Positions 23,863 to 57,639 of a DNA stretch of 64,000 bases are shown here, one piece after another. Each line of letters starts with the position of its first letter. Position 1 is the stretch's first letter. Source of the DNA: Candidatus Levyibacteriota bacterium (lineage in GTDB: Bacteria > Patescibacteriota > Microgenomatia > Levybacterales > UBA12049); assembly GCA_027459745.1 (NCBI GenBank), contig DAIDHL010000002.1, positions 191,310-255,309 on the forward strand, read 5' to 3'. The notes beneath the pieces are model-generated. The model searched no databases, was not told the origin of the DNA, and worked only from the letters and a program-made list of their open reading frames with translations. Both the position numbers and the translations under genes were made by a program.

Positions 23863-23864
23863 AA

Positions 23865-28764: not shown

Positions 28765-28770
28765 AAGTAA

Positions 28771-29969: not shown

Positions 29970-30148
29970 ATGGTATTAATTTAGTCTAGGAAGTTTGGGT
30001 GAGTTTGTCAAAGCTCAAAGCGTGTTTAGAGAAATAAAAATCTTGCTAACAATAGGCGTCTGGGCTGTATAGCGTAGCTATTAGAAATATGATATACTAT
30101 TTATGTCAAAAGATAGATAAATCATAAATCTGACTTTTGGCGTTTTTT

Positions 30149-32801: not shown

Positions 32802-32820
32802 ACTTCTCTTTAAAAATAAT

Positions 32821-33411: not shown

Positions 33412-33542
33412 AAAAATATTAGTTGTTTTAGCGACAAAGTAGATCTTGATGGGGTCCTTCGACTCCTTCGTAAACTCGGTCGCTCAGGATGACAAAAAGA
33501 ATTTAAAGATTATAATTCTTTCTGTCAATTGCTTATGCTTAT

Positions 33543-34232: not shown

Positions 34233-34247
34233 ATTCAGTATGACAGT

Positions 34248-35168: not shown

Positions 35169-35259
35169 TTAGTAGGAAGGTCGAGTCATGACCTAAGTGG
35201 AAATTAGAAATTTTGTTCCGGCTCGCTTGAACTAGGTTAAGGATTATTAATACGAATCT

Positions 35260-35787: not shown

Positions 35788-35811
35788 TCAATCAGTTATT
35801 GCTGCTATAAT

Positions 35812-36897
35812 GTGAGGATGAAACATTTTGCCGTTATATGGTTTTTGATTGTCATAGCGGCATTAATTGCTTGGCGCATGTTGAGTACACCTATAACCTC
35901 ACCCATACTTAGAGAGGTTACTGACACCCCTACTCCGGCTATACGTGTAGCAAAATATAATCAGTACACTATATTCGTTCCTTATTGGAGTATATCTAAC
36001 TCATCTTCTAAGATTGATCCAAAATATTCAGAGGTTGTTTATTTTGGACTTGCAGCTGATTCATCAGGAGTTGAGAAATCAGAAGATGGATACCTAAACA
36101 TCGCTGAATTTAACGCCATGGTTAATCCTAATCAGCAAAAAATATTAGCATTACGCATGCTAGATAGCAACGAAAATAGTAAAATACTAGCCAATACACT
36201 AGAACAGAAGCATCTTATTAGTCAAACTATTAGTATTGCAAAAGAAAATGGATTTAAAGGTGTGATGCTGGATTTAGAATTACAAGCTCTACCTTTTAGC
36301 TCGATAGTGAATCAAATAGATAAATTTTATGATATATTCTATCAGCAAACAAAACAGAATAATTTAAATTTTTCTACTACGATGTATGGAGATTTATTCT
36401 ATCGCCCAAGGCCGTTTGATTTAACATATCTGACGAAAGATGTTGATAAAGTGTACATTATGGCTTATGACCTACACAAGGCTAGTGGTCAGCCGGGTCC
36501 TAATTTCCCTTTACAAACAGTAAGTAATGATAGGAGTGATTATAATTTAGAAAAAATGATTAGCGATTATGAGCTAGTAGTACCTACAAACAAACTAGTG
36601 GTAGTTTTTGGTATGTTTGGTTACGACTGGACAGTAGACCCCAAAGGGCAGACTGTTGGAAGTGGAACCGCTTTGAGTGATTTACAAATTCAACAGCAGT
36701 TTTTGAGCCATTGTTATAAATTAAATTGTCTTATCTCTAGAGATAGTAATTCTCAAGAAACAGTAATTCATTTTACTGACAATAACCAAGATCATGTTCT
36801 ATGGTTTGAGGATAAAGTATCTTCTGATGCAAAGATGATTTATTTACATCAAAAAGGCATAGCTAATTTTGGGTACTGGGCCTTCTCTTATTTTTAG
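35812..36897 (+). CDS. Glycoside-hydrolase-family-18-like (chitinase-fold) secreted protein with degenerate catalytic motif
   Basis: There is an N-terminal signal/anchor. FKGVMLDLELQ aligns to the GH18 DGxDxDWE box, but only the terminal D-x-E is retained. MAYDLH resembles the GH18 MxYD motif. Confidence 0.4.
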   Translation: MRMKHFAVIWFLIVIAALIAWRMLSTPITSPILREVTDTPTPAIRVAKYNQYTIFVPYWSISNSSSKIDPKYSEVVYFGLAADSSGVEKSEDGYLNIAEFNAMVNPNQQKILALRMLDSNENSKILANTLEQKHLISQTISIAKENGFKGVMLDLELQALPFSSIVNQIDKFYDIFYQQTKQNNLNFSTTMYGDLFYRPRPFDLTYLTKDVDKVYIMAYDLHKASGQPGPNFPLQTVSNDRSDYNLEKMISDYELVVPTNKLVVVFGMFGYDWTVDPKGQTVGSGTALSDLQIQQQFLSHCYKLNCLISRDSNSQETVIHFTDNNQDHVLWFEDKVSSDAKMIYLHQKGIANFGYWAFSYF

Positions 36898-36958
36898 ACT
36901 ATTACTTAACTCTTATGTTTTTATGATTCATTTATGATTTTTTTATGATCTACTTATC

Positions 36959-37702
36959 TTGTATAGTCGTCGCATTTTTTTGCTATGTGCTATTCAGACT
37001 ATGCAAGCTGTTGATAGATATGATCAGTATAACATTTGGAGCAACTCATTGGCTTTAGAGGCAGAGAAAATACTGTTTTTACAACGTAAACATTGGTTTG
37101 TGCTCCTGCCGGTACTATTTTCAGTAAGTGTAACGATTATTCTAGGGTTTATTGCATTGGACTATTTAATTTTAGGTTTCTCAGTTGATTTCTTAACTTC
37201 TATCGTGCTGTTGTTATCTCTACTAACTCTATCTTCATCGATATTAATAAAAGCCCTAACAGAATGGTATTTTACGGTCTATATCCTAACTTCACGAAGG
37301 TTGTTAGAAATTTGCTATACTCCCTTAGCTTCTTACGTTCTAAACAATGTACTTTTGGAACAAGTACGGTGTACTGAAATAGATACGGCGACCAATGGAT
37401 GGCTCTATAAATATTTAAACATAGGGGATATCATTATTACATTTGATAGACCTACTCACAGAGATGCTTTTATTCTGCAATCTATTAAGAATTTCCATGT
37501 TCTGAGTCGTCAGTTATGTAGTCTTTTGCTACCAGTACAATCACCACAACAAAATTTATTAAAAGAGAGATCTAATTCTAATTTGCCCGCTAAAGTAATT
37601 TGGTTTAAACAAAAAGATCCTAAAAAAAAGCTTAATTCATTTGAAGAAATCCTGCCTAAGCGAAACATCTTTAATTACCCAGTCATTAAATATGGACTAT
37701 AG
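36959..37702 (+). CDS. Hypothetical membrane protein (possible bPH-like domain)
   Basis: The 247-aa product has 2-3 TM helices followed by a YILTSRRLLEICYTP region. The start is uncertain. Confidence 0.35.
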   Translation: MYSRRIFLLCAIQTMQAVDRYDQYNIWSNSLALEAEKILFLQRKHWFVLLPVLFSVSVTIILGFIALDYLILGFSVDFLTSIVLLLSLLTLSSSILIKALTEWYFTVYILTSRRLLEICYTPLASYVLNNVLLEQVRCTEIDTATNGWLYKYLNIGDIIITFDRPTHRDAFILQSIKNFHVLSRQLCSLLLPVQSPQQNLLKERSNSNLPAKVIWFKQKDPKKKLNSFEEILPKRNIFNYPVIKYGL

Positions 37703-37913
37703 ATATCTAGTAGGAGGGATCTGTCTGGTGTTAAATGTCGTTTTGTATGTTTATAATCGTTTTTATTTTCAAGAGGCGTTAAAAGCCAACCAACAAATTG
37801 GAATACCTTTACATTCGAGGTTAGAAAAGCTACTAAAAATAAATTCTGTGTTTATAAGTGCTGTTTTTATTTTTACCTTTACATATGTACTTTATCTATT
37901 AATTGTACGCTGA
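37692..37913 (+). CDS. Hypothetical small membrane protein
   Basis: The start was trimmed to the ATG at 37692 to avoid overlap with the upstream gene. The product has two hydrophobic helices. Confidence 0.25.
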   Translation: MDYRYLVGGICLVLNVVLYVYNRFYFQEALKANQQIGIPLHSRLEKLLKINSVFISAVFIFTFTYVLYLLIVR

Positions 37914-38018
37914 AAGTATATTTACCTATTGACGTAGAAAAAAAAATATCGTAGAATCTTTTCAGACTCATTAAAAAAGTGAGTTTTATTTTTGGGTAAT
38001 TTAATTATAAATTAACTA

Positions 38019-38047
38019 TTGAATTACTCAAGAATATTTAGTATAAT
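38019..38047 (+). promoter_or_regulatory. Putative tuf promoter (TTGAAT-N17-TATAAT)
   Basis: The -10 is perfect and the -35 is 5/6, with a 17-nt spacer. It ends 15 bp before the tuf start. Confidence 0.45.
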
Positions 38048-38061
38048 AATATTACAAATAT

Positions 38062-39243
38062 ATGGCAGATAAATATACTCGTTCAAAACCACATGTTAAT
38101 ATCGGTACTATTGGTCACGTCGATCATGGTAAGACTACAACTACAGCTGCTATTGCTACCTATCTTGCTAAAAAAGGTATGGCTCAAGCTAAGAAATATG
38201 AAGATATCGATAACGCTCCCGAAGAAAAAGCTCGTGGCGTCACGATTAATATTGCTCATATTGAATATGAGACAGAGAAAAGGCATTATGCTCACATTGA
38301 CGCTCCTGGTCATGCTGATTACATTAAGAACATGATTACAGGTGCAGCTCAAATGGACGGGGCAATTTTAGTTGTATCTGCTCCGGATGGTCCTATGCCA
38401 CAAACTCGTGAACATATCTTGTTAGCTTATCAAGTCGGCGTTCCAGCTATCGTGGTTTACCTTAACAAATGTGATATGGTTCAAGATGAAGAACTTTTGG
38501 ATTTGGTCGAAATGGAAGTACGTGAATTGCTTACTAAATATCATTATCCAGGAGACACTGTGCCAATTATTCGTGGCTCTTCTTTGAAAGCTTTGGAAGG
38601 CGATCCAGCTTATGAAGCTAAAATTCAAGAATTATTAGATGCAGTTGATTCTTATATTCCTACACCAGTTCGTGCTCTAGATAAACCATTCTTGATGCCA
38701 GTTGAAGATGTTTTCTCAATCAAGGGTCGTGGTACAGTGGTTACTGGAAGAATTGAGAGAGGTATTGTTAAAGTTAATGAAACAGTTGAAATTGTGGGTA
38801 TTCGTGATACTAAAAATACTGTTGTCACCGGAGTAGAAATGTTCCGCAAACAATTGGATGAAGGTCAAGCAGGAGATAATGTAGGTTTATTGCTTCGTGG
38901 TATTGAAAAAGCTGATGTAGAGAGAGGTCAGGTGGTTGCCAAACCTGGAAGTATTACTCCTCATACTGATTTTGAAGCTGAAGTTTATATTTTGACTAAA
39001 GAAGAAGGAGGACGTCATACTCCATTCTTCTCAGGTTACCGTCCACAGTTTTATATTAGAACTACTGACGTAACTGGAACAGCTACTTTACCAACTGGTG
39101 TAGAAATGGTTATGCCAGGTGATAATGCTAAAATGACTGTTCAATTGATTGTTCCAGTTGCTTTGGAAGAGGGAATGAGATTTGCTATTCGCGAAGGCGG
39201 TCACACCGTCGGAGCAGGAGTTATTTCCAAAATTATTAAATAA
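38062..39243 (+). CDS. tuf: Elongation factor Tu
   Basis: [14 protein letters not shown] and NKCD are present. The GTP domain is followed by complete domains 2 and 3. The product is 393 aa. Confidence 0.9.
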
Positions 39244-39267
39244 TTTGGAACCATGTACAAACAAACA

Positions 39268-39289
39268 AATCCCTGAAAGGGATTTTTTT
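39268..39289. terminator. Bidirectional intrinsic terminator (AAATCCC-tgaa-GGGATTT + T-run, A-run on the other side)
   Basis: A 7-bp perfect stem with a 4-nt loop sits between the convergent tuf gene and the 39302-39838 gene. Confidence 0.6.
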
Positions 39290-39301
39290 GTGAGATAAAA
39301 C

Positions 39302-39838
39302 TTATTTGCTGAAATAAAGTGTAATAGACGAAGGACCATAATAAGTATTGTCGCTTAATTGGAGTACTTTTTGTAAATCTGTTACAAGTGATGAAGAACC
39401 ATCTGCCATCCTTATAAATCCATTATCAAAGTAAATATATTCACAGTTGTTAGGATTAAAGATGACATGCATAATCAATTGATTTTTTTGATAGAAGTTC
39501 ATGGAATAACGTACGTTTCCATACCCGAGTAAAGAACAGTAATTATTATCAACTATCTCTGCTTGTAATATATCAGAGTACAGCTTTTTTACAGTCGATA
39601 ATTTTGAAATATTTTTTGAAAAATTCGGCAGAGTAGAATTGTCAATATTTACTGACCTGACTCTTAAATAATCAGGTGAAGAAAATGAAGCAAGAAAATT
39701 ATAATAATAGGTCAACCCTAAATCTTTTAATGCTATACCTAATGCTGTTTCATAAAACATTATATATAGAACAAAAAGGAAGATGATTAACAATAAGGAG
39801 AATTTTCTTATAAAAGTAGGTTGTTTTAAACGCTTCAT
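39302..39838 (-). CDS. Hypothetical secreted/anchored protein
   Basis: The 178-aa product has an N-terminal signal/anchor (LLLIIFLFVLYIMF). No motif was recognised. Confidence 0.4.
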   Translation of the reverse strand: MKRLKQPTFIRKFSLLLIIFLFVLYIMFYETALGIALKDLGLTYYYNFLASFSSPDYLRVRSVNIDNSTLPNFSKNISKLSTVKKLYSDILQAEIVDNNYCSLLGYGNVRYSMNFYQKNQLIMHVIFNPNNCEYIYFDNGFIRMADGSSSLVTDLQKVLQLSDNTYYGPSSITLYFSK

Positions 39839-39869
39839 GATCCAGTTATTTGTCTTGGTTTAACTTCCT

Positions 39870-40292
39870 TCAGGTAAAATACTCAATAAAATACAATATG
39901 ATTCCCGATAATACGGATATTGACCAGAAAATTAGAAAGATTGTTGTAATATTCTTGTGTAATTTAAAATAATTAACTTCTTTTTTATAATTTCTCCAGG
40001 CTAAAAGCATAAATATTATCAATGAAACAAACATTAAGAGTGATAAGATTCCATGAAATGCAGCCAGAACCACGTGCCAAGGAATTTCTATTTTCTCAGT
40101 ATTTGCTTTTACACGTGTTGCCATATAAGAAATATTAAAAATGATTTCATACAGTAAAGCGAAAGCAGCCAGTTTAGTAGGGAATTTATGGTATTTATAA
40201 CTGCGGTAGAAAGTATAGAAGATGATACAGGAAATGATAATTTCGGCAACTAAGGTAATGGTGCTGTAGAGAGGAATATGCATATAAAACAA
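39870..40292 (-). CDS. Hypothetical 4-TM membrane protein (DUF420-like)
   Basis: The 140-aa product has four hydrophobic helices and a conserved-looking WHVVLAAFHG segment. Confidence 0.4.
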   Translation of the reverse strand: MFYMHIPLYSTITLVAEIIISCIIFYTFYRSYKYHKFPTKLAAFALLYEIIFNISYMATRVKANTEKIEIPWHVVLAAFHGILSLLMFVSLIIFMLLAWRNYKKEVNYFKLHKNITTIFLIFWSISVLSGIILYFIEYFT

Positions 40293-40382
40293 TAATATCA
40301 GGATATTTATTTATATGCCACTTCAAAATTTTAATAGTCTTATAGTTTGTAAATTTAATCGTTTTATGTTAAACTTGACCAT

Positions 40383-41183
40383 ATGGCAATACCAGAAAGT
40401 AGGCATGGAATACACTCAAAAATAATAGGTGGTATTAAAGTAGTGGCTGAGACAGACTTGCCTTATAATATACACATTTCGGCAGCTAATTTATCAGAAA
40501 TGTATACAATGGTTGGTTTATCCCCGACCGAAATTACAAGTCAAGTGTTATCGCTAAAAAGAAAGCATATTTTCACTAATGGAGAAACGCATGATCTGGC
40601 TGGTGAATCTCATCCTAGCAAACCAATTGTGACTTTATATACTGACTGGGCTTGGGAAGAACGTCAAGCTGATATAAAAGAAATTAGAGGTCATATTGAG
40701 GCCAATATGCAAAATAAACAAATCAGGAAGGTACCTAATTTATCTTCATTTTACTCTCCTCGCAGAGTAGAAGCGTATTTAAATACCGCACCTCCAGAAA
40801 GAGCGATAAAATTCATGGAAAAATTGATCAATAAGATTTGGGATAATAATTTGAATTCAGCTCTGATACACGAATTAAAACACCAGGCTGATACAAGAAA
40901 ATCTATGAGTAAAATAGCTGCATTATTAAGTCTATATGGCGGAGATATCGTTGCACTTTTAATAGGGGTTAGAACGGGTATATGGAGTCAGAAGAACTTG
41001 CCTCGACTAGGAGGTTTATATACGCCTGGTTTAGATGTTTTTTTGACTTCCATGACTATACTACAACCACTATTGAGTAGATTGTCTACTGTGGCAAATG
41101 TTTTTGAAGATAGAGCTTTGGCTACACAAAGACGTTTAAACAGGAATTTACCTAATGCTATCTCTTTGGTAGATAAGATTTAG
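40383..41183 (+). CDS. Hypothetical protein with HEXXH motif (possible zinc metallopeptidase-like)
   Basis: The product is 266 aa. ALIHELKHQAD contains HExxH. No further family assignment is possible. Confidence 0.35.
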   Translation: MAIPESRHGIHSKIIGGIKVVAETDLPYNIHISAANLSEMYTMVGLSPTEITSQVLSLKRKHIFTNGETHDLAGESHPSKPIVTLYTDWAWEERQADIKEIRGHIEANMQNKQIRKVPNLSSFYSPRRVEAYLNTAPPERAIKFMEKLINKIWDNNLNSALIHELKHQADTRKSMSKIAALLSLYGGDIVALLIGVRTGIWSQKNLPRLGGLYTPGLDVFLTSMTILQPLLSRLSTVANVFEDRALATQRRLNRNLPNAISLVDKI

Positions 41184-41199
41184 ATGTGTAATGACTTAT

Positions 41200-43893
41200 T
41201 TAATTTCCACTAACTGTAACATTTAGACTATTAGTGCTGGTTGAGCTACTGTTAGTTGAATTGCTATTGTTAGTTGAATTGCTATTAGAAGTTGAACTTG
41301 TGGTTGAATTATTAGTTGTAGCATTAGTGTTGCTAGAGCTTGTGTTAGTCGATGCATTAGTTCCAATACTGCCATTGCTTTGCGAGTTAGAATTAAGGGT
41401 ATTTGATTGTGAATTTGAACTATTTTGAGAACTGACAATACAGCAGTAATCCGGGTGACTAGCGTTATTTTCCGTGGGACAGTCAACATAGGGATCAGAA
41501 CTAGCTAGCTGATGGCCACTTGGACAGGAATTCCTTGCCCAGCTATAGCATTTACCCCCATATTGTTGAGCACAAAGTTGTCCGTTTGTAGGGGGAGGTG
41601 TCGTTGTTGGAGTAGCTACAAGACAACAACGTGAACCATTGGCTGCACATTGTGCTCCACAAGCATAAGCGTTATTCGCGTAAGGATTATGACAAGCGGT
41701 TCCATCGGTACACGTAGCATAAGCACAACCAAAAGATGTACCTAAATTTTGACATGTTTGACCATTATTACATAACCCGTTAGGATTACTATTACTACAG
41801 TCCGTTGAAGTAGGGTAACTTGCAGTTGCTTGGCTTGAATTAATTATTTGGATTGTCGTTGCCTCAGTGGGGATTGGAATAAGCGTTGGAGATGGAGTCG
41901 GAGTAGGTGTAGTAGATGAAGAAGGAGAATTGGGTGATAAAACTATAGTTGGGATAGGGGTTAAGGTCTGATTATTTCCAATATTATTGTTATTATTATT
42001 AGAGGATGTTTGTACTGATGAGGAAGTAGTTGAATTAGTGTTACTTACCGAATTACCAGCATAGGAAGGAGATTGTATGGCTACTGCAGCGTGATTGACT
42101 GAGGAAGTTAGGTTGGTGGTACTGGCGATATAACTTTGATTGTTTGGTAGATCTGTTTTGGTCGAATTAAGAAGGTTTTTTGTATCATCAGCAGTCTGCT
42201 TAAAACTAAGAATAAGAGGAATAATATATACTGATGACTGTTTTTCAGCTACAAATTGATTGATGGTATTTTTGTCGATATTCATTTGAGAAATATAGAA
42301 GTTTACGGCTTCTGGTACAGACAAACCAGTTACACTCGTAACCACACTTTGCAAAGACGAAGCGTTCAGAGGAAGAATATTACTAATAACAGCTGCAATA
42401 GCTGGAGTCGATGTATCATTTATTTTTAATTGGTCAGGCACTAATATTAACGATGATAAGAATTGTTTTTTAAGTTGCGTATTTGTAGTGTTTGAATTAG
42501 GTAAATTACCGATTAAAGAGGAATTATTTGTTACATCTTTCATGTAAAGCTGCATTAAATCTTCAGTCTGCTGTACAGTTTGACTGGTTTGCGGAACTAA
42601 TAAAGTATTATGTACAATATTAGCCAAATTATGTATGTCGTTAACAGTAAAAGTACTTGCAATGGGAATATTATATTGAGCTAACCTACTAATTCCTTGA
42701 GTTGAGGTGTCATGAGAGGTGAGCAGGCTTGCTTCCATTGGTTGCAAAATCTCTAAAGCTTGTTGAGGTATGGGAGATTTATTTTTAAATATGCTTGATA
42801 TTTCTCCTGTGACGTCGTCTGACAGAAGCTTTTGTTGGGTATTGGCTCTTGTTATATTTTCTGCTAATAATTGGGTATCATTTATTTTATTTATCTCCGA
42901 TTGAACTTGTTGTTGAAGTAATGAATAATCAGAAAGTGCGGTTGGGATGTTTGCTAAGATATTTTGCGAAATAGGAAGAGAATAAGGTAGCGTTGGAAAG
43001 GTATAAAGAGCATCTGAAGGGTTACTAGAATTATTGAGAGCTAGTGGTATCACCTGATACGCAGAACTAGAAGCATCAGAGGGTTGTGTAGTATTTAGGT
43101 TAAGTGAGGTATCAGTATAGTTTCCTAGACATTGATTAGCCATTTGCGCCACTCTTTTGGAACTATCTAAATCGATATTTAGTAAAAGATAGTCATGATT
43201 TACGAGATCGGTATTGTTTGTATTTATCTCATTATTTAGATCGTTTACCCTCGCTTGAATGTTTGCGTAAACTATTTTAAGTTGGGATATTTTATCTGCT
43301 AAACAATATGTTGTGGTTAAATCTTTATTCTTTTGGGCTTCTAATAAATTGTTCTGAATAGCCAATTGCTGTAACTGGGTGAAAGTCTCATATTCGTCTG
43401 CCTTTTGTTGTAATTGAGTTGTCATTGCCGAACTAGAGCTATTAAGATAGTTTGTTTGTGCGTAGGCTTGAAAGACAGAGCCTATTATGTTAGGAGAATT
43501 AGTCTCGGATTGTTCGGATAGAAGTAATAACCTATGCACTTCTGCTATGCGTTCATTGGACAAATGCATATTGAAGCTAATTTTATCGGTGTTATCAGAG
43601 AATAACAATACAAAATTATCTTCAATGAATATCTTTATTGGATAAAGCGGGTTGTTCGGCAAAATACCAGGGCTCAGAAGAGTTTGGTTGAGTGTGTCAT
43701 TGCGATGAATATAAGTTAGCGCGAAAATACTACAAACAAACACTATGCAAGGTATAAGCAAAGCAGATAATATAAAGAGAAAAACTTTTAGTTGTCTGGG
43801 AGTAATGAAATAATTGTAATCCACAGAAGGTAAAATAGCTTTTACTTTCTGCTCTGATTGTGGATCTGGTTGTTTATTATCAGTTGGCTCCAT
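41200..43893 (-). CDS. Giant membrane-anchored surface protein with Cys-rich module and N/S/T low-complexity C-terminal tail
   Basis: The 897-aa product has a TM anchor near its N-terminus (FLFILSALLIPCIVFVCSIFAL). A long extracellular region follows, with a PT-rich linker. A block with about 24 Cys follows (CSNSNPNGLC...CCLVATP...CPTENNASHPDYCC). A tail of roughly 80 aa made of S/N/T repeats is encoded by tandem repeats at 41203-41450. Confidence 0.6.
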   Translation of the reverse strand: MEPTDNKQPDPQSEQKVKAILPSVDYNYFITPRQLKVFLFILSALLIPCIVFVCSIFALTYIHRNDTLNQTLLSPGILPNNPLYPIKIFIEDNFVLLFSDNTDKISFNMHLSNERIAEVHRLLLLSEQSETNSPNIIGSVFQAYAQTNYLNSSSSAMTTQLQQKADEYETFTQLQQLAIQNNLLEAQKNKDLTTTYCLADKISQLKIVYANIQARVNDLNNEINTNNTDLVNHDYLLLNIDLDSSKRVAQMANQCLGNYTDTSLNLNTTQPSDASSSAYQVIPLALNNSSNPSDALYTFPTLPYSLPISQNILANIPTALSDYSLLQQQVQSEINKINDTQLLAENITRANTQQKLLSDDVTGEISSIFKNKSPIPQQALEILQPMEASLLTSHDTSTQGISRLAQYNIPIASTFTVNDIHNLANIVHNTLLVPQTSQTVQQTEDLMQLYMKDVTNNSSLIGNLPNSNTTNTQLKKQFLSSLILVPDQLKINDTSTPAIAAVISNILPLNASSLQSVVTSVTGLSVPEAVNFYISQMNIDKNTINQFVAEKQSSVYIIPLILSFKQTADDTKNLLNSTKTDLPNNQSYIASTTNLTSSVNHAAVAIQSPSYAGNSVSNTNSTTSSSVQTSSNNNNNNIGNNQTLTPIPTIVLSPNSPSSSTTPTPTPSPTLIPIPTEATTIQIINSSQATASYPTSTDCSNSNPNGLCNNGQTCQNLGTSFGCAYATCTDGTACHNPYANNAYACGAQCAANGSRCCLVATPTTTPPPTNGQLCAQQYGGKCYSWARNSCPSGHQLASSDPYVDCPTENNASHPDYCCIVSSQNSSNSQSNTLNSNSQSNGSIGTNASTNTSSSNTNATTNNSTTSSTSNSNSTNNSNSTNSSSTSTNSLNVTVSGN

Positions 43894-43989
43894 ATACTAA
43901 TCATGCAGAACTCATGGTTATATTGTCAATGATATATTAAGAAAAGTTTCGTTTGAGATGATTAAATGATGTAAAATACAGCTAGAATT

Positions 43990-45306
43990 ATGGAAACTAA
44001 TGGACCAGTTCCAGCTGATATCTTAAACAAGAATAGTCTGTATTTAGAGTCTTTGCGTAAACAGGGCATTCAGATGACTGAATTAAGAGCGCAAGATAGT
44101 CCATTTAATGCCGTGGTGTTTAATAATGAGCAATTAGTTAATACTATTGGCCTCGAGTCTAAATCTTCAGAGATGGTAGTACAACAGCCCAAAAGTAACA
44201 TGCTAATGTTATACGCTGTACAGGGTGAAGCAGGTCTAGCTCAGATTGGTGGTTCATTTGCAATAGAACTAAAAAGCAAAGTAAATAATGTTGTTAATCT
44301 TAATGCACCTATCTCTCCCACTGCACTTGAATCAGCAGTCTATAATGCTGATTTGCAAAAGCAGGCTAGGCAAATGGCAGAATTATATATTCACGCTATT
44401 CCTGAGTCACAACGACACCAACCAATCAAGATTGTGGGACACTCGATGGGTGGTACATCTGCTCCCTTAGTCGCCAAGGAATTAATAAGTATGGGCTATA
44501 ACGTCAGTGATATCGTAATGATTGCTCCTCCTGGCATGGTAGAACGATCGGGAGTACAGATGTTAAACGATTTCACTAAATTGGGCAGTAAAGAAAATCT
44601 ACGTCCTGATGTACCCAATATTTATCCTAGTCCAGCTGATATTGCCAGTTTTAAGGAGCGTTATAAAGAGCTGTCAGAAAAAAAGAAACTTACCTCAGAA
44701 GAAAGAGAAGAAAAGGCTATGTACGAATTGGCTATCTCGCGCCAAGTTGATCCAGATAAATTAACTCTTAGCAATATGACACGTGCAGAACGTGATGCGG
44801 TAATTAAAATTGATGTAGAAATGTTATCTTTGCTAGAAGCCACAGATGATATTTCCCAAAAGCGCCTGAAAAAATTACAAGAACAAAGATTTAATATTCT
44901 AAAAAATAATACTTGGAAGGTTATTCCGGGAAAAGTTAATAATCAACCAAGTCAACGCAGTTTGGCGGGTGGGGAAAAATTGTACCTGACGGGTAATTTA
45001 GTGCGCAGTCTTGGCGGATTTAAACGTACAGTAACAGATTTGGCTAGTGAAATAACCGTGGGTAATACGCAGGATTTGATTGATTTCAATAATACGCTGC
45101 CTGATCATAAATTAAGAATTACCCTTATTGCTGGGAAAGATGATCCTATTGCTGGTCAGTATGAAGTTGGACACGTGAAGCACATAAAAGTTGGACCTAA
45201 TACTAGCTATGGAGAAATACAAATGCCGGAGTTTAGTCATTACTCTTTATCAGTTGATCCTGTTCGGGTCGCTCAAGCTGTAGGCAGAATAATTGAAGCT
45301 GCATAA
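43990..45306 (+). CDS. Alpha/beta-hydrolase-fold protein (GHSMGG nucleophile elbow; putative esterase/lipase)
   Basis: IKIVGHSMGGTSAPLVA is the serine-hydrolase nucleophile elbow. There is no signal peptide. The product is 438 aa. Confidence 0.5.
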   Translation: METNGPVPADILNKNSLYLESLRKQGIQMTELRAQDSPFNAVVFNNEQLVNTIGLESKSSEMVVQQPKSNMLMLYAVQGEAGLAQIGGSFAIELKSKVNNVVNLNAPISPTALESAVYNADLQKQARQMAELYIHAIPESQRHQPIKIVGHSMGGTSAPLVAKELISMGYNVSDIVMIAPPGMVERSGVQMLNDFTKLGSKENLRPDVPNIYPSPADIASFKERYKELSEKKKLTSEEREEKAMYELAISRQVDPDKLTLSNMTRAERDAVIKIDVEMLSLLEATDDISQKRLKKLQEQRFNILKNNTWKVIPGKVNNQPSQRSLAGGEKLYLTGNLVRSLGGFKRTVTDLASEITVGNTQDLIDFNNTLPDHKLRITLIAGKDDPIAGQYEVGHVKHIKVGPNTSYGEIQMPEFSHYSLSVDPVRVAQAVGRIIEAA

Positions 45307-45310
45307 TCAT

Positions 45311-46294
45311 TTACCATCGGTGGTGGACCGTGGGTTTAATTTTTTCTTCATAGATATCTTGGATATGTTGCATATCGGTGCGTGGTAAAGGTGGTAGGTC
45401 GCTAGTGCCTGCATTTTCGCTCACCTGAGTTGAGGATTTTCCACCAGCAATCACAGTTGAGACTTCTTTGTGCATAAGAATCCACTTCAAAGCTATCTGA
45501 GCCAAGCTAAATTTAGGTGGCAGCATGGTTTTTAATTCATCCACTGCCTTTAAACCGGTAGCAAAATCTACCCCGGCAAAAGTTTCTCCCACATCAAATG
45601 CCTCGCCATGACGGTTAAATTGGCGATGATCTGTACTGGCAAATTTAGTTTGTTTAGTCATCTTGCCTGTTAATAAACCGCTAGCCAAAGGAACTCTGAC
45701 AATAATGCCAATATTTTTTTTGGCAGCTTGTTTGAAAAAAAGCTCTTTTGGTCGTTGACGTAAAATATTGAAGATGATTTGTATCGTAGACAGATTGGGA
45801 TATTCTATGGCTTTGAGAGCTTCTTCCACTTTTTCCACACTGACTCCATAATGTCGGATCATTTTCTTCTCGACCATTTCATCCAGCGCAGTAAAAATTT
45901 CTGGACGATAATAAACTTCAGTAGGAGGACAATGGAGTTGTAATAAGTCTAAAGTGTCGACCTGTAGGTTCTTCAAACTTCTCTGAACAAATTTAAATAG
46001 ATTATCTCTATTATATCCTTCACTAATATGAGGGTTTAATCTTCTTCCAGCTTTGGTAGCAACATAAAATTTAGCTTTCGAGTTTTGTCTGAATTTACTT
46101 ATTAGTTTTTCACTTCGTCCATCTCCATAGACATCAGCCGTGTCGATAAAGTTGATCTTGTTTTCCTCGACCGCTTTGAGAGTTTCCAAAGCTTGTTCTT
46201 CCGACACATCTCCCCAATCAGCGCCCAACGACCAGGAGCCATAGCCAATCTCTGAAACTTTAAAGCCAGTTTTACCCAATGTGCGAAATTTCAT
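45311..46294 (-). CDS. Aldo/keto reductase
   Basis: The AKR N-terminal pattern is present (MKFRTLGKTGFKVSEIGYGSW ... IDTADVYG). The product is 327 aa. Confidence 0.8.
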   Translation of the reverse strand: MKFRTLGKTGFKVSEIGYGSWSLGADWGDVSEEQALETLKAVEENKINFIDTADVYGDGRSEKLISKFRQNSKAKFYVATKAGRRLNPHISEGYNRDNLFKFVQRSLKNLQVDTLDLLQLHCPPTEVYYRPEIFTALDEMVEKKMIRHYGVSVEKVEEALKAIEYPNLSTIQIIFNILRQRPKELFFKQAAKKNIGIIVRVPLASGLLTGKMTKQTKFASTDHRQFNRHGEAFDVGETFAGVDFATGLKAVDELKTMLPPKFSLAQIALKWILMHKEVSTVIAGGKSSTQVSENAGTSDLPPLPRTDMQHIQDIYEEKIKPTVHHRW

Positions 46295-46466
46295 AAATAT
46301 TTTTTTGTCAGTACAAGGCCTACTTTAGAGAAACTAAGCAATAAATTTAATTTTAACCTGAACTTGATAATGCACAGATTCTGGACAAGCCAGAATCAGG
46401 TTATTATATACCCCATCTATAAGAAGCGTGTAAGAAGCTAATATAAGATGTATAATTTTTTATATT

Positions 46467-47552
46467 ATGAGTGAATCTAATAGTGAGTTTGTTTCAGTTT
46501 TTACTCCTGAGGGGAGAGAGACGCTGAAAGGTCAGTCACGCAAGAGCATTTTTAAGCAAGTCGCAGGTCTATGGGAAAATCGAAGTTTTGGAAGTGCAGT
46601 CTGGGATCTATATGTAAAAAAATTTAACAGAGAAGAACTTTCAGCTGCTGAGCAGGACATGGTAGAGATTCTCTATGGGACTGAGGCTAGACCATTGGGA
46701 AGTAAAATAGAATTTCCTCATTTAATGAAAGAGCTTGGTTATACTGCTCCAGAAAGTTTGTTGGTAAAAGCAAACACACCGCCTGAAGATAGAATGGAGA
46801 AGGTAAAAGAATATTTTTCTGCTAAGGGGATTGAAAAAATGTTTTGTAAACCCTTAAATAGCGCTCGTCAACGTAATCTTAGAGGTCTTAAAGAGGATTT
46901 ATTACTCGATTCAGAACAATTTAAACAGAATATAGATAACATTACCGAAGATACCGTAGTTCAAGAAAAAATGTCGATTAATGGGAATATCAGATATATT
47001 CGTTATCGAGATACACAAGGCAGAATTTATGTAGCAGCTTTTGATTATAAAGAGTTAGGGGTGGATCAAGAAGAAAAATGGGATGGTAAAAGACTTAGGC
47101 GAAGAGTACAAATACCTTTTGCTAGCAAAAAAGATAATAAAAAGTCTGCCTCAGGAGAGGGAAGATTAGCCATGGGAGAAAGCATGATCAATACCTGGGC
47201 TTTGCCTCTAGCAAATAATGATATGGAATTAGGTAATCTAAATCGCTTTATATCAGAAGCAACTACTGATTTGGAGGATAAATTAGGTGTAAAACTGCCT
47301 TTCTTTTCATGTGATATTGGTGTTAAAGATCCCAAAGCCTTAGGCGGTGAATATGATGTACCAAGGTTGAAAGAAAATGTGGTCTTTATCGAAACACAAG
47401 GTTTCCCCAATCCATGGGGAGGATATCGATGGGCTGATCGTAAGGCATTAAGAGATTATATGCGGATTTGGAATCTCTATTTAAGAGAACATGGAGACGA
47501 GATTCTCCCTAGGGCGCGAGCTATGTTACAAAAAGGTAATCAAGCAGCCTGA
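46467..47552 (+). CDS. Hypothetical protein (weak ATP-grasp-like features)
   Basis: The product is 361 aa. Candidate K (MFCKPLNSA) and E-x-N (VVFIETQGFPNPWGG) segments are reminiscent of ATP-grasp ligases. This is a low-confidence, motif-only call. Confidence 0.3.
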   Translation: MSESNSEFVSVFTPEGRETLKGQSRKSIFKQVAGLWENRSFGSAVWDLYVKKFNREELSAAEQDMVEILYGTEARPLGSKIEFPHLMKELGYTAPESLLVKANTPPEDRMEKVKEYFSAKGIEKMFCKPLNSARQRNLRGLKEDLLLDSEQFKQNIDNITEDTVVQEKMSINGNIRYIRYRDTQGRIYVAAFDYKELGVDQEEKWDGKRLRRRVQIPFASKKDNKKSASGEGRLAMGESMINTWALPLANNDMELGNLNRFISEATTDLEDKLGVKLPFFSCDIGVKDPKALGGEYDVPRLKENVVFIETQGFPNPWGGYRWADRKALRDYMRIWNLYLREHGDEILPRARAMLQKGNQAA

Positions 47553-47572
47553 GTAGATTGAAACAGCAGATT

Positions 47573-48508
47573 TTATTTCACAAATTCAGCTAGTTCGGCG
47601 GTGATGGAGTCTTGCATATCTTTTTCTCTAGGAGCATGGCCGGCAAATACAAATTTGAGTTTCGAATTCTTAATTTTCTTATGTAGATTCCAGGCATTGG
47701 CGGGTGGACAAACAAAATCATAGCGTCCATGCAGAATAGTTACAGGAATATCTGAAAGTTTGTCAGCATTGTCGAGAATATAATTATCCGGCATAAAACA
47801 TAAATTCTTCATATAAGTAGCTTCAATGGGAGCAAAAGAACGATATGAACCGTCAGACATGCCTTCTTCAATTTCTTCCTCAGTTACCTGCATGGCCAGA
47901 AAAGCTGATTCATAATAATCAAATTCATAACAATATTTCTCTTTCTCCTCCTCTGTCCCATGTAGCATTTTACTCAAATAATATTCTAAAGCCTGGTCTT
48001 TTTTATCCTCTGGCACCAAATTCATAAACCTTTCCCAATTATCAGGGAAATTGTATTTAATAGGGCCATTAATCAGATGATCATTATCTGCACTGCTGCC
48101 CAAATAAATACCCCGGATTAACATACCTGTAATCCGTAGTGGGTTTTGCAGTGCATAAAACAGCGAAAGAGCAGAACCCCATGATCCTCCATAGAGAAAA
48201 ATTTTACCTAGATTAAAAAGCTTAAGAATCTGATCAATATCATCAAGCATTTTTTGTGTGGTGTTATTTTTTACACTGGCGAAGGGAGTACTTTTACCAG
48301 CTCCGCGCTGATCAAAAGTGATAATATTCCATTTGGTGAGGTCAAAAAAAACTAAATTAGAGTATTCTATGCCACCGCCACCGGGGCCGCCATGCAAAAA
48401 GAGGACTGGTTTGCCACTTGGATTGCCATGCTGCTCATACCAGAGTTTATATCCATCACTGACCTCCAAAAAACCTGATTTAAGGGGAGTATATGTTTTC
48501 TCCAGCAT
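47573..48508 (-). CDS. pip: Proline iminopeptidase (prolyl aminopeptidase, S33)
   Basis: The oxyanion loop VLFLHGGPGGG and the nucleophile GGSWGSALSL are present. The product is 311 aa and matches the family along its length. Confidence 0.8.
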   Translation of the reverse strand: MLEKTYTPLKSGFLEVSDGYKLWYEQHGNPSGKPVLFLHGGPGGGGIEYSNLVFFDLTKWNIITFDQRGAGKSTPFASVKNNTTQKMLDDIDQILKLFNLGKIFLYGGSWGSALSLFYALQNPLRITGMLIRGIYLGSSADNDHLINGPIKYNFPDNWERFMNLVPEDKKDQALEYYLSKMLHGTEEEKEKYCYEFDYYESAFLAMQVTEEEIEEGMSDGSYRSFAPIEATYMKNLCFMPDNYILDNADKLSDIPVTILHGRYDFVCPPANAWNLHKKIKNSKLKFVFAGHAPREKDMQDSITAELAEFVK

Positions 48509-48591
48509 ATAAATTATCTTAACATATACCAGCTGAAATTTATATGAATTATTATTAGCTTGCTAAATAAAATATCTGAGGCTTAATCTTA

Positions 48592-48620
48592 TAGACATTT
48601 TTTTTCGTTTAATGTATAAT
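48592..48620 (+). promoter_or_regulatory. Putative S10-operon promoter (TAGACA-N17-TGTATAAT)
   Basis: An extended -10 has a perfect TATAAT, and the -35 is 5/6. It lies 47 bp upstream of rpsJ. A GGAGG SD sits at about 48652. Confidence 0.4.
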
Positions 48621-48666
48621 TACTTTTACCTTTAAGTAAGAACTTTGAAAGAAGGAGAAAATAGCT

Positions 48667-48975
48667 ATGCCAAAAGGAAGAATTCGTGTACGTTTAAAAA
48701 GTTATGATTCTCGTGTCATTGATGCGTGTTGTCAACAAATTTTAGATACGGCAATTAGAACCGGAGCCAAGATCGTGGGACCAGTTCCACTTCCTACACA
48801 GCGTAGCGTATATGCAATCAATAAGTCTCCTTTCGTCGAGAAGAATCATCGAGATCATTTTCAAATCTGTGTGCATAAGAGATTAGTTGATATTATTTCT
48901 CCAACCGACAAAACTATAGATAGTCTTACTCATTTGGAATTACCGGCTGGAGTTGATGTTGAGATTAAAATGTAA
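48667..48975 (+). CDS. rpsJ: 30S ribosomal protein S10
   Basis: RIRVRLKSYD...LPT matches S10 throughout. The product is 102 aa. Confidence 0.9.
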   Translation: MPKGRIRVRLKSYDSRVIDACCQQILDTAIRTGAKIVGPVPLPTQRSVYAINKSPFVEKNHRDHFQICVHKRLVDIISPTDKTIDSLTHLELPAGVDVEIKM

Positions 48976-49070
48976 TCTGAAAAGATGACATTTGATAGAT
49001 ATTGATGCCCAACAATGATATATAGTATAATATTAACTGTATAATGCTTGTTCAGGTTCTATCGTCAACA

Positions 49071-49099
49071 ACAGATAGCCGAGAGGCTGTCTTTTTTTT
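49071..49099 (+). terminator. Hairpin + T8 (terminator/attenuator candidate) between rpsJ and rplC
   Basis: ACAGATAGCC-gaga-GGCTGTCT has one bulge and is followed by TTTTTTTT. It is preceded by a TTGATG-N18-TATAAT promoter-like element at 49002-49031. Confidence 0.45.
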
Positions 49100-49134
49100 G
49101 AAAATGATAAAAAATATTAAAAAGAGGATTATAT

Positions 49135-49944
49135 ATGCAGACAATAATTGGTCAAAAATCAGAACAAACACAAAGATTTTTAGAAAACGGAACTAGAATT
49201 CCGGTTACGGTCGTGTCTGTTACCCCAAATAGTGTTATAACCACTAAATCTCTAGCTAAAGACGGGTATACTGCAGTCCAAATTGGCGCAGGTTCTCGTA
49301 AGAACTCAACCCGCAGTCAACTTGGTACAGCCAAAAAAGCTAATCTCGCTGCCGCACCCAAAATTATTAAAGAGGTGCGGTTTTTTGATGATAGTGATGT
49401 TATGCCTGAAGTTGGCACAGCTATTAATTTGAGTGATGTATTGCAACCAGGAGATATTGTAAATGCTACCGGCACATCTAAAGGCAAAGGATGGGCTGGT
49501 GTAGTCAAAAGACACAATTTCCGTGGAGGTCCTCGTACCCATGGTCAGTCAGATCGAGAACGTGCTCCTGGCTCATTAGGACAGACCACTACTCCTGGAC
49601 GTGTATATAAAGGTAAAAGAATGGCTGGTCGTATGGGGTCAGAGACTGTGACAATTCAAAATTTGTTTGTAGCTGATGTTATTGGTGATAAGGTATATGT
49701 GGCTGGTCTCGTTCCTGGACACGTAAATTCATTTATTGTTCTTAAAAAGACTGGTAAAATGGCTGATAAGAAATTTAGTCCGATGTTACGTATGGAGAAT
49801 ATGGATATCGAGCCAGTGGCTGTATTAGTTTCGGAAGATGTTTCTGCTGAAGAACCAAAAGTAGCAGAAGCAGAAAATGAGACAACTGAAGAAAAGTCCA
49901 CTTCCATTGAAAATGCCAATGAGTCGAAGGAGGAAGCTAAATAA
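49135..49944 (+). CDS. rplC: 50S ribosomal protein L3 with about 60-aa acidic C-terminal extension
   Basis: The L3 core runs from MQTIIGQKSEQTQRF..IPVTVV to ..VKRHNFRGGPRTHGQS. An extra E/K/T-rich tail follows (EEPKVAEAENETTEEKSTSIENANESKEEAK). Confidence 0.9.
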   Translation: MQTIIGQKSEQTQRFLENGTRIPVTVVSVTPNSVITTKSLAKDGYTAVQIGAGSRKNSTRSQLGTAKKANLAAAPKIIKEVRFFDDSDVMPEVGTAINLSDVLQPGDIVNATGTSKGKGWAGVVKRHNFRGGPRTHGQSDRERAPGSLGQTTTPGRVYKGKRMAGRMGSETVTIQNLFVADVIGDKVYVAGLVPGHVNSFIVLKKTGKMADKKFSPMLRMENMDIEPVAVLVSEDVSAEEPKVAEAENETTEEKSTSIENANESKEEAK

Positions 49945-49945
49945 T

Positions 49946-50668
49946 ATGGCAGAAGTAATCAAAAAACAAAAAACTACAGCTAAAAAAGCAACTAGCGCTA
50001 AAACGATAGCTTCTAAAACAGTGAAAAAAGAAACAGGTTTGGTCATTGATGTATTTGATGTCAGTGGTAAAGTTGCCGGACAATTAACTCTGGCCGAAAA
50101 AGTTTTTGGTGTAGCGATTAATAGAACGTTACTAGCACAAGCAATACGTGTTTACTTGGCCAATCAACGTCAAGGTACACGTTCTACCAAAACTCGTGGG
50201 GAAGTTTCTGCATCTACACGCAAAATCTATCGTCAAAAAGGTACAGGTCGGGCTCGTCATGGTTCCTTAAAAGCACCACTGTTCGTCCATTATGGAGGCG
50301 TTTCGCATGGACCACGTCCAGTGGATTTCAGCATGACTATGCCTCAAAAGATGCGTCAAAAAGCTTTGACCAGTGCATTGTCAGCTAAGTTGAAGGATCA
50401 AGAGATTAAAGTCGTATCTGGCTTGGTCAAACTAGAAGCAAAAACTAAAGTTATGGCCGGAATATTAAAAAATTTAGGACTTACAAACCATAAGGTGCTG
50501 ATCGTTATCAATGATGGTACAGATAATATTGTAAGAGCAGCTAGAAATTTAGAAGGCGTTACTTTGACTTCAGCCGCTAGATTAAATACTTATGATGTCC
50601 TAACAGCTAAACAAATTGTATTTGCCCAAGAAGCAGTTGAAAGTTTACAAAAAAGATTGGAGAAATAA
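49946..50668 (+). CDS. rplD: 50S ribosomal protein L4 with about 30-aa Lys/Ala/Thr-rich N-terminal extension
   Basis: The start was reset to the ATG at 49946. The L4 core begins near LVIDVFDVSGKV. The preceding MAEVIKKQKTTAKKATSAKTIASKTVKK is atypical. Confidence 0.85.
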   Translation: MAEVIKKQKTTAKKATSAKTIASKTVKKETGLVIDVFDVSGKVAGQLTLAEKVFGVAINRTLLAQAIRVYLANQRQGTRSTKTRGEVSASTRKIYRQKGTGRARHGSLKAPLFVHYGGVSHGPRPVDFSMTMPQKMRQKALTSALSAKLKDQEIKVVSGLVKLEAKTKVMAGILKNLGLTNHKVLIVINDGTDNIVRAARNLEGVTLTSAARLNTYDVLTAKQIVFAQEAVESLQKRLEK

Positions 50669-50670
50669 GT

Positions 50671-50955
50671 ATGAATCCTATTTATAAACCATTAATCACT
50701 GAAAAAACCATGTCTGAGGCTGAAAAAGGTAAATATTCGTTTGTTGTGGCTCAATCAGCAGGTAAAAAAGTTATCAGAAGAGCGATTGAATCTAATTTTT
50801 CTGTTAATGTGGTTAGTATTATGACTACTGTATCCAAAGGTAAGAGAAAGCGAGTTGGTCGTAATCGCCAAAAAGTAAGCGCCTCTACTATTAAAAAGGC
50901 AGTTGTTGAACTTAAATCAGGACAGAAAATTAGCTTATTTGAGTTAGGTGCTTAG
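50671..50955 (+). CDS. rplW: 50S ribosomal protein L23
   Basis: The 94-aa product has the L23 pattern (KPLITEKTM...KYSFVV). Confidence 0.85.
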   Translation: MNPIYKPLITEKTMSEAEKGKYSFVVAQSAGKKVIRRAIESNFSVNVVSIMTTVSKGKRKRVGRNRQKVSASTIKKAVVELKSGQKISLFELGA

Positions 50956-51008
50956 ACTTTGCGGCTATTGTATGCTACAATTAGCCTCATAGTTTATGAA
51001 GTATTTAT

Positions 51009-51761
51009 ATGAAGAAACTAAAACATATTCGCAAAAAACATGCAGGTCGCAATCTGGCTGGACAGGTAACTGTCAGGCATCAGGGTGGGGAGCATAAACG
51101 CTTTTATCGAGTAGTCGATTTTAAGCGCAATAAGGTAGATATATCGGGAGAAGTTGTAGCTATTGAATATGATCCAAATAGGACATGTGATATTGCTTTA
51201 ATTCATTATGCAGATGGTGAAAAACGCTATATCTTGGCTCCTGAGGGGCTTAAAGTAGGAGATAGTGTTGTAACTTCCCCTACTGCAGATATCAAGCCTG
51301 GTAATGCTTTGCCTTTAGCCAATATTCCGGTGGGTACTGTCGTTCACAATGTAGAATTGACGCCTGGTAAAGGTGGACAAATTGCTCGTGGTGCAGGTAC
51401 AAGTGTAACTGTAAACGCAAGTGAGGCAGGTTTGGTTTTCTTGAAGATGCCTTCCACGGAAATTCGTAAAGTTGACGCTACCGGCTATGCTACAATTGGT
51501 CAGGTTGGTAAAGTCAACTGGAAGAATGAAGTTCTTGGTAAAGCAGGTCGGTCTAGACATATGGGTATAAGACCAAGTGTTCGAGGCGTTGCCATGAATC
51601 CCCGATCCCATCCTCATGGAGGAGGAGAAGGGCGTTCAGGTATTGGTATGTCTTCACCAAAAAATTATGCTGGTAATACAGCCGTAGGTAAAAGACGCCG
51701 ACCGAATAAATACTCTGATAAATACATCGTACAGAGAAGAAAAGGAGGAGCTCACAAGTAA
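51009..51761 (+). CDS. rplB: 50S ribosomal protein L2 (N-terminally short form)
   Basis: [29 protein letters not shown] ... SHPHGGGEG is the unmistakable L2 core. The product is 250 aa and lacks about 25 N-terminal residues relative to typical L2. Confidence 0.9.
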
Positions 51762-51850
51762 AGATCAAAATTCAAAAATCTAAGATCAAAACTATAAACA
51801 TTTGATCTTAAATATACATTTTGAACTTTAACTTTTGAATTATTTACATT

Positions 51851-52135
51851 ATGGCAAGAAGTAGTAAAAAAGGTCCTTATATAGATGACAGGTTAATGAA
51901 AAAAATCCAGAAGCAAAAGCAGACTGGGGAGCATACTGCGATCAAGACTTGGTCCAGATCTTGTCAGATTCCTCCAGAGTTTGTGGGGCATACTATTGCT
52001 GTACATAATGGGAGAATTTTTATTAACGTGTTGATCTCTGAGAGTATGGTAGGTCGCAGGTTGGGTGAATTCGCTGCTACTAGAACCTTTAGAAGTCATG
52101 GAAGAGTTGTCGCACGTGAGATTAGTAAGACGTAG
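51851..52135 (+). CDS. rpsS: 30S ribosomal protein S19
   Basis: [12 protein letters not shown]...[10 protein letters not shown] matches S19. Confidence 0.9.
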
Positions 52136-57638: not shown

Positions 57639-57639
57639 T

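Follow-up and report, generated by a model that had tools for sequence, protein, structure and literature searches.

In the bacterial DNA analysed here, a stretch of 64,000 nucleotides (positions 191,310 to 255,309 of contig DAIDHL010000002.1, referred to below as the window), the genes tuf (EF-Tu) and rpsJ (S10), which normally adjoin each other, are separated by 9,423 nt, and the interval between them holds eight open reading frames (ORFs), one of which codes for a membrane-anchored protein of 897 residues with a cysteine-rich domain near its C-terminus. The interval is a lineage-restricted, remodelled break in gene order made up of native genes, about half of it conserved and half of it variable, and not a mobile island. 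Judged by its domains, the 897-residue protein is an anchored member of the DUF5667 family whose cysteine-rich domain is an orphan. On balance, and with modest confidence, we favour a joint explanation, in which the tuf-rpsJ junction was opened in a lineage-specific manner and the large protein is a predicted surface stalk, anchored in the membrane, that presents a cysteine-rich knob.

Architecture and conservation of the 897-residue protein

The gene of the 897-residue protein occupies positions 41200-43893 on the minus strand, and all segments listed here lie on this strand. From the N-terminus, the protein consists of a signal-anchor transmembrane helix (residues 32-64, 43702-43800; Kyte-Doolittle peak 2.82 and a helix at 32-71 in the AlphaFold2 (AF2) model), which is its single hydrophobic anchor, a DUF5667 domain (residues 76-155, 43429-43668; PF18915 at 29.6 bits compared to a Pfam cutoff of 27), a helical module with two cysteines, Cys197 and Cys255 (residues ~161-260, 43114-43413; delimited by profile search and AF2), and a central ectodomain that is rich in N/Q/S/T and predicted as helical (residues 261-640, 41974-43113; composition and AF2). 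These are followed by a Pro/Thr/Ser linker (residues 641-697, 41803-41973) with 25% T, 19% P and 18% S, a C-terminal domain with 16 cysteines between residues 699 and 818 (41437-41802; composition and alignment), and an S/N/T-rich tail (residues 820-897, 41203-41436; composition and Tandem Repeats Finder). The ectodomain contains 46% N+Q+S+T and about 10% charged residues. The anchor and the linker agree with the first-pass annotation of this DNA, which had described a membrane-anchored 897-residue protein with a PT linker. Its count of about 24 cysteines in the block was too high, as there are 16 in the C-terminal block (699-818) and 20 in the whole protein. The 16 cysteines are arranged in sub-blocks of 10 and 6 with a short Pro/Thr spacer between them and are spaced as C-x8-C-x5-C-x8-C-x4-C-x5-C-x10-C-x3-C-x6-CC ... 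C-x7-C-x7-C-x14-C-x11-CC.

A word-index search among 5.8 billion proteins returned two homologues only. The first of them, P0001, is 70% identical, has the same PF18915 match, and is encoded on a 280-kb contig at the same position in locus L001, which belongs to the only close relative found (GCA_027459725.1). The second, P0002, is 45% identical and is encoded in another context (L002). The P0002 gene (L002 1335-3713) has its N-terminus split by frameshifts, with the anchor and DUF5667 in separate ORFs, and is either a pseudogene or the product of an assembly error. All 16 cysteines are invariant across the three homologues. Compared with P0001, the two cysteine sub-blocks show 82% and 80% identity; compared with the distant homologue P0002, they show 72% and 61% and are the best-conserved part. 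The central residues 321-600 reach 85% in the first comparison and 52% in the second, and the identity of the linkers and the tail to the two homologues is only 14-54%. A scan of the metagenomes of the Joint Genome Institute (JGI) with the family alignment did not reveal any further homologue of the 897-residue protein.

A profile search with HMMER in 1.84 billion representatives yielded 220 matches, with the best 150 of them listed. Among these best 150, there are five longer relatives of 746-892 residues, all of which match DUF5667, three of them at or above the Pfam cutoff. Three of these five (P0011-P0013) were read and have, past the anchor, a two-cysteine module and a C-terminal part that is Pro-rich or of low complexity. 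The 897-residue protein thus resembles other DUF5667 membrane-anchored proteins of uncultured bacteria in having an N-terminal anchor followed by DUF5667, but differs from them in that, among the best 150 of the 220 matches, the 16-cysteine domain is confined to this protein, P0001 and P0002. About 140 of the best 150 matches (clusters at 50% identity) are proteins of 93-365 residues, mostly around 190, and match the two-cysteine module only. Five of these short proteins were examined. They lack any Pfam or NCBIfam annotation, and all five have N-terminal signal-like hydrophobic segments, which fits a location of the module outside the cytoplasm. The module, with the motif RDVVKxLCLxDKLxQ ... 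HEF ... EAxQCIG, looks like an undescribed domain family. The literature searched contained no mention of DUF5667 or of the accession GCA_027459725.1, and a literature search on surface proteins of Patescibacteria returned nothing specific.

Proposed role at the cell surface

From the architecture we infer a type II (N-in, C-out) membrane protein. The 16-cysteine domain would be compact, most likely with eight disulfides, and the helical stalk and the Pro/Thr linker would hold this cysteine-rich knob out for binding, most likely to a partner surface. The cysteine domain would be the part under the strongest constraint, and the linker and the tail would be free to vary. This comes close to the first-pass annotation, in which the protein had been called a cysteine-rich, adhesin-like surface protein: its topology and composition are in keeping with an exposed protein and the 16 cysteines are invariant, but adhesion is only plausible, and neither a fold nor a known family was found for the domain.

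The linker and the tail may carry O-glycans added by GT-C/PMT-type enzymes, for which there are two PMT_2 GT-C genes and a DUF2298 gene about 17-23 kb upstream (16342-23862). Serine-rich repeat adhesins and glycoproteins with Pro/Thr linkers are known from monoderm bacteria. As in serine-rich repeat adhesins and O-mannosylated actinobacterial proteins, S/T/N-rich segments and a Pro/Thr linker flank a folded domain in the 897-residue protein, and the window also codes for PMT-type GT-C glycosyltransferases. Unlike the serine-rich repeat adhesins, the protein has neither an LPXTG motif nor a long serine-rich repeat array and is anchored N-terminally and not to the wall. The tail (82% S+N+T) has 78 residues in this protein and about 62 in P0001, and P0002 lacks it. 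The tail had been described as encoded by tandem repeats and thus prone to phase and length variation. The composition and the difference in length between species are in line with this description, but Tandem Repeats Finder detected a single 18-nt unit in 2.3 copies (41245-41296) and no long array. As this repeat is in frame, the length could change and the phase could not.

Several points count against the explanation that we favour. The AF2 model of the full-length protein, based on a three-sequence alignment, has a mean predicted local distance difference test score (pLDDT) of 32, and no fold supports a binding domain; the best-predicted part is the two-cysteine module with pLDDT 50-65, and the central helices are of low confidence. 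The cysteine domain modelled alone reached a mean pLDDT of 40, and neither model is good enough for a comparison with known folds. In the 64-kb window, no enzyme that forms disulfides was seen, and the C-terminus of the protein (...SLNVTVSGN) is devoid of a wall-anchoring signal, be it LPXTG or a hydrophobic anchor. P0002 lies in another context and is N-terminally frameshifted, which means that linkage to tuf and rpsJ is not a property of the family. The junction comparison described below covers one close relative (L001) and one outgroup (L003), too few to put the gains and losses in order. Finally, an adhesin and a structural role in the envelope are inseparable from sequence alone.

The second of these roles is the best of the alternatives, and we regard it as possible, though clearly less probable than a binding role. 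According to this alternative, the 897-residue protein is a structural component of the envelope, for example a spacer within the wall, an S-layer-like coat or a scaffold associated with pili, with the cysteine domain serving stability or self-assembly. The architecture fits this role equally well. The identity of 85% in the central region between the two close genomes and the presence of envelope genes nearby (FemAB, LCP, PilO) are in its favour, and the overall identity of 70% is ordinary, as the non-housekeeping genes of the window and L001 are 64 to 83% identical, and lacks the fast change that is often seen in proteins at the contact with a host. Against a structural role stand the lack of any S-layer, wall-binding or pilin domain in the Pfam and NCBIfam searches and the position of a putative disulfide-rich knob at the end of a long linker, which is more typical of a ligand-binding module.

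A bolder version of the proposed binding role holds that the 16-cysteine domain is a new disulfide-rich recognition module on a glycosylated stalk, which would bind the partner cell of a small, uncultured and probably episymbiotic lineage and would be encoded at a break in gene order that acts as a hotspot for the gain and loss of envelope and accessory genes; we consider this version speculative and rather unlikely. Partner recognition in ultrasmall and uncultured bacteria is largely unexplained beyond type IV pili, and a strongly conserved, cysteine-rich domain near the end of a long anchored protein, without detectable relatives, would be a concrete candidate for it. As it stands, the locus is best described as a set of lineage-specific hypothetical genes of an ordinary kind.

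The tuf-rpsJ junction in the window and its relatives

The left boundary of the interval is tuf (38062-39243, plus strand, an ORF of 393 codons) and the right boundary is rpsJ (48667-48975, plus strand), with which the S10 operon starts. We compared the junction with at least 80 tuf loci from species-representative genomes of mostly unrelated phyla; rpsJ lies on the downstream side of tuf in 35 of them. The gap is smaller than 400 nt in 31 of these 35 loci, and the largest gap other than that of the window is 3.5 kb, in agreement with the earlier statement that the two genes normally adjoin and are 9.4 kb apart here. The gap between fusA and tuf is also long in the window, 5.8 kb compared to less than 820 nt in 35 of 36 sampled loci, the sole exception being L003 with 4.7 kb. 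In the order and orientation of fusA, tuf and the S10/spc genes, the window agrees with the canonical str-S10 arrangement (rpsL-rpsG-fusA-tuf, then rpsJ); it differs in the width of two gaps, fusA-tuf (5.8 kb) and tuf-rpsJ (9.4 kb).

The eight ORFs comprise, in order, a 178-codon ORF (39302-39838, minus strand), the gene of a 140-residue membrane protein (39870-40292, minus), an ORFan of 266 codons (40383-41183, plus), the gene of the 897-residue protein, the genes of a 438-residue alpha/beta-fold hydrolase (43990-45306, plus), a 327-residue aldo/keto reductase (45311-46294, minus) and a 361-residue lineage-restricted protein (46467-47552, plus), and the gene of a 311-residue prolyl aminopeptidase (47573-48508, minus). 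In L001, where tuf and rpsJ are 98% and 99% identical to those of the window, the interval measures 5.6 kb and contains an unrelated 149-residue ORF, a DUF420-like gene, the big gene, a 60-residue fragment and a prolyl aminopeptidase gene, in this order. Three of the eight genes are present at the same positions in L001, namely those of the 140-residue DUF420-like protein (82% identity), the 897-residue protein (70%) and the prolyl aminopeptidase (74%); in L001, 42 nt separate the big gene from the DUF420-like gene on its downstream side. The other five, the 178-codon ORF, the ORFan with a HEXXH motif, the hydrolase, the aldo/keto reductase and the 361-residue protein, are not found at the L001 locus, in which the 178-codon ORF is replaced by the unrelated 149-residue ORF. 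With blastn, the blocks common to the window and L001 are 35802-39298, 39889-40288, 41304-43848 and 47601-51999, and the patches that are not common are 39299-39888, 40289-41303 and 43849-47600. In total, the interval splits into about 4.1 kb of conserved skeleton and about 5.3 kb that are absent or replaced in L001.

In place of the block of hydrolase, aldo/keto reductase and 361-residue protein, L001 has about 630 nt (L001 9483-10000), and the 60-residue ORF therein contains the sequence IVDKDSGKGT, which resembles the S-adenosylmethionine (SAM)-binding motif of methyltransferases. It is possible that this ORF is what is left of another, earlier occupant of the site.

In L003, tuf and rpsJ are 49 nt apart. 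Of the other genomes among the loci listed, L003 comes closest in its ribosomal proteins and neighbouring markers (fusA 73%, secY 62% and tuf 80% identity), and the adjacency of tuf and rpsJ in it indicates that the break arose within the lineage of the window. We therefore propose that the junction would have been opened in one small uncultured lineage and filled with native, lineage-restricted genes. The skeleton of this filling would consist of the DUF420-like multi-pass membrane protein, the large envelope protein and the prolyl aminopeptidase, around which the 178-codon ORF, the HEXXH ORFan, the alpha/beta hydrolase, the aldo/keto reductase and the 361-residue protein would have been gained, lost or swapped.

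Both boundaries carry putative transcription signals. A hairpin between the convergent tuf and 178-codon ORF (39261-39291, predicted on both strands by folding) has folding energies of -12.9 kcal/mol on the plus strand and -12.4 kcal/mol on the minus strand, with z of about -3.5 on both, and falls within the block syntenic with L001. Its T-run is clean on the plus strand and interrupted on the minus strand. This agrees with the bidirectional terminator that the first-pass annotation had placed here, the hairpin being terminator-like on both strands. On the other side, a promoter-like site TAGACA-17-TATAAT (48592-48620, plus strand) lies ahead of rpsJ; it matches 11 of 12 consensus positions in a consensus scan and is a pattern match only. 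Transcription of tuf would thus end at its own hairpin terminator and the S10 operon would restart from its own promoter-like site, and with these two signals the insert need not disturb the expression of the ribosomal genes.

The interval had been interpreted as an accessory island. What stands of this interpretation is that the interval is lineage-specific, with three skeleton genes kept and five genes variable in the comparison with L001 and no insert in L003, and that about 5.3 kb of it vary; what does not stand is the accessory nature of the central gene, which is conserved, and any sign of mobility. An extreme form of the interpretation, a horizontally acquired mobile island that was inserted as one unit, could draw on the missing interval in L003, the 5.3 kb absent or replaced in L001 and a fragment next to P0002 that resembles, as judged by eye, the C-terminus of an integrase of the rve family. 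We consider such an insertion improbable for the following reasons. The ORF map and the Pfam, NCBIfam and PHROGs searches did not reveal any integrase, recombinase or transposase among the eight ORFs, there is no tRNA gene in the window, the flanks of the interval show only short repeats at chance level, be they direct or inverted, and PHROGs and PADLOC gave no match to a phage or defence family that would suggest mobility. The GC content of the eight genes is 0.285-0.398 compared to a background of 0.363 ± 0.033, both GC and GC3 (GC at third codon positions) are within the range of 51 background genes of the window, and the codon-usage distance is at most 0.162 compared to a maximum of 0.187 in these background genes; by composition and codon usage the interval is therefore indistinguishable from the rest of the window. 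In addition, the variable DNA forms three separate patches around the conserved skeleton and not one block, and the genome of L001 carries its homologue of the 361-residue protein in a housekeeping neighbourhood. The preferred reading, a junction opened and refilled within the lineage, implies that even the highly conserved order fusA-tuf-rpsJ can open and be refilled with native genes without leaving marks of mobile elements, a caution that is relevant when synteny serves to call islands.

It is less probable still that the eight genes form one pathway, for instance a module for processing of peptides or small molecules that serves the surface protein. The genes are closely packed, with intergenic gaps of 4 to 172 nt, and several of them code for hydrolytic or redox enzymes, but their strands (-, -, +, -, +, -, +, -) alternate at almost every junction, so that they do not make up an operon, and L001 keeps the big protein while lacking four of the genes. 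In favour of such a module, the family of the 361-residue protein has conserved motifs that resemble the hinge of ATP-grasp enzymes, and the best segment in hhalign fell on the VQE...IR motif of RimK. The similarity is not significant: hhalign with E. coli RimK gave a probability of 0.2% with this hinge motif as the only aligned segment, neither the protein nor its five-member profile has a match in Pfam or the PDB, and the protein has none in NCBIfam. The earlier label of an ATP-grasp-like hypothetical protein is thus without statistical support. The family is lineage-restricted, with four homologues of the 361-residue protein. One of them, 46% identical, is encoded in the relative's genome between dnaG and rpoD (L084 8001-9086, contig DAIDHK010000003.1, GCA_027459725.1), and the family appears in housekeeping neighbourhoods. 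In the one relative available, the genes are distributed independently of each other, which speaks against a common pathway.

Comparison of the cysteine-rich domain with known families

The first-pass annotation had likened the spacing of the cysteines to EGF and chitin-binding domains. Like the hevein/CBM18, peritrophin/CBM14 and EGF domains, the 16-cysteine domain is small and dense in cysteines, stands at the end of a linker and is probably extracellular, but it has no Pfam or PDB match to any of them. The isolated block of 123 residues, searched in Pfam at E<=10, matched only zf_CCCH_4 with E = 4.1, the scan of the full-length protein added no such family, and there was no sequence match in the PDB; the likeness in spacing was thus not confirmed. 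The EGF signature has a CxC and that of hevein an early CC, neither of which is present here: the 16 cysteine positions do not include any CxxC or CxC and form only two CC pairs.

The same results speak against a known intracellular iron-sulfur (Fe-S) or zinc-finger family. We regard a metal-binding domain (zinc, iron-sulfur or metallothionein-like), possibly intracellular, as the least probable of all alternatives, since the cysteine content of 13% and the two invariant histidines, H735 and H813, are outweighed by the lack of a significant zinc-finger or Fe-S match, the absence of CxxC and CxC motifs, the even number of cysteines and the position of the block more than 630 residues past the single N-terminal anchor, beyond DUF5667 and the Pro/Thr linker.

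Other genes of the interval

The remaining genes of the interval differ in how far they can be assigned. The product of the 178-codon ORF has an N-terminal hydrophobic anchor (residues 6-38) and no family match in Pfam, NCBIfam, PHROGs or PADLOC. The 140-residue protein is predicted to be a multi-pass membrane protein and is weakly DUF420/MARVEL-like: the DUF420 alignment covers nearly its full length, with a score of 26.1 bits below the cutoff of 30.5. A second scan, with this protein as the query, detected a homologue of it with 71% identity on a 1.2-kb contig (L083) in a different context.

The ORFan of 266 codons finds only itself among the 5.8 billion proteins and has no match in Pfam, NCBIfam, PHROGs, PADLOC, the PDB, plasmids or phages, and its codon usage is native. 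Its HELKH motif at residues 163-167 is in agreement with the earlier description as a HEXXH-motif protein, but the profile searches (Pfam, NCBIfam, PHROGs and PDB) did not assign it to any peptidase family, and chance alone would give about 0.5% of ORFs as long as this one a HEXXH motif. In its layout, with HELKH at 163, two hydrophobic segments and EDRA at 242, the protein is similar to E. coli HtpX (M48B), which has HEISH at 139, two membrane helices and EFHA at 222, but there is no sequence similarity between the two by BLASTP or hhalign, and we take an HtpX-like reading as a lead only.

The three enzymes that the first-pass annotation had named could be recovered. The 438-residue protein, which had been called a cytoplasmic alpha/beta hydrolase with a GHSMGG motif, has this motif at residue 150 and neither a signal nor a transmembrane segment; it matches PF00975 (Thioesterase) with 37.3 bits over residues 123-196, i.e. 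the nucleophile elbow only, and has no match in L001. Further motifs are KDDP at 383 and FSHY at 415, with a long insert between these and the elbow, and the catalytic acid and histidine are likely located near 383 and 415, the triad being assigned by position. The aldo/keto reductase matches PF00248 with 209 bits over positions 1-290 of the 291 of the profile, and the proline iminopeptidase matches the prolyl aminopeptidase model TIGR01249 over its full length with 268.5 bits, above the equivalog cutoff of 259.75.

Other features of the window

Outside the interval, a cluster of envelope and glycosylation genes at 11278-29439 codes for FemAB, LCP and DUF2298 proteins, two PMT_2 GT-C proteins, a protein with fn3/Big_13 domains and PilO. 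The presence of FemAB, LCP, DUF2298, PMT_2 and PilO suggests a monoderm-type cell wall. The gene for ribosomal protein L30 is missing from the spc operon, as the S5 gene ends at 57638 and the L15 gene starts at 57640 (region 57108-58077), and the same is true for L003. The absence of L30 is consistent with the candidate phyla radiation (CPR) but not exclusive to it. In view of FemAB, LCP, the type IV pilus genes, DUF5667 and the missing L30, the organism could be a member of the Patescibacteria, the group that the first-pass annotation had in mind. The ribosomal proteins of the window are closest to those of L003, a metagenome genome labelled Gammaproteobacteria, and three sampled CPR loci are no closer than other phyla.

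The gene fusA is located at 30137-32257, and the genes between fusA and tuf span 32295-37913. They code for a bPH_2 protein, a CDP-alcohol phosphatidyltransferase, a PHP protein, a DAGK-type lipid kinase, a CarS-like cytidylyltransferase, a GH18 protein and two membrane ORFs, and this set is kept in L001 apart from bPH_2. An Rfam scan of the 64-kb window gave no family at gathering score, and thus no rRNA and, at the S10 and spc operons, no leader element of ribosomal-protein genes. Downstream of secY, two paralogues of adenylate kinase are encoded in tandem (59454-59999 and 60032-60604), followed by cytidylate kinase and methionine aminopeptidase (region 59454-61289). In the S10 operon, the ORF of L3 comprises 269 codons with a long acidic C-terminal extension and overlaps the longest ORF of L4 by 68 nt (49135-50668), so that the true start of L4 is probably located further downstream.

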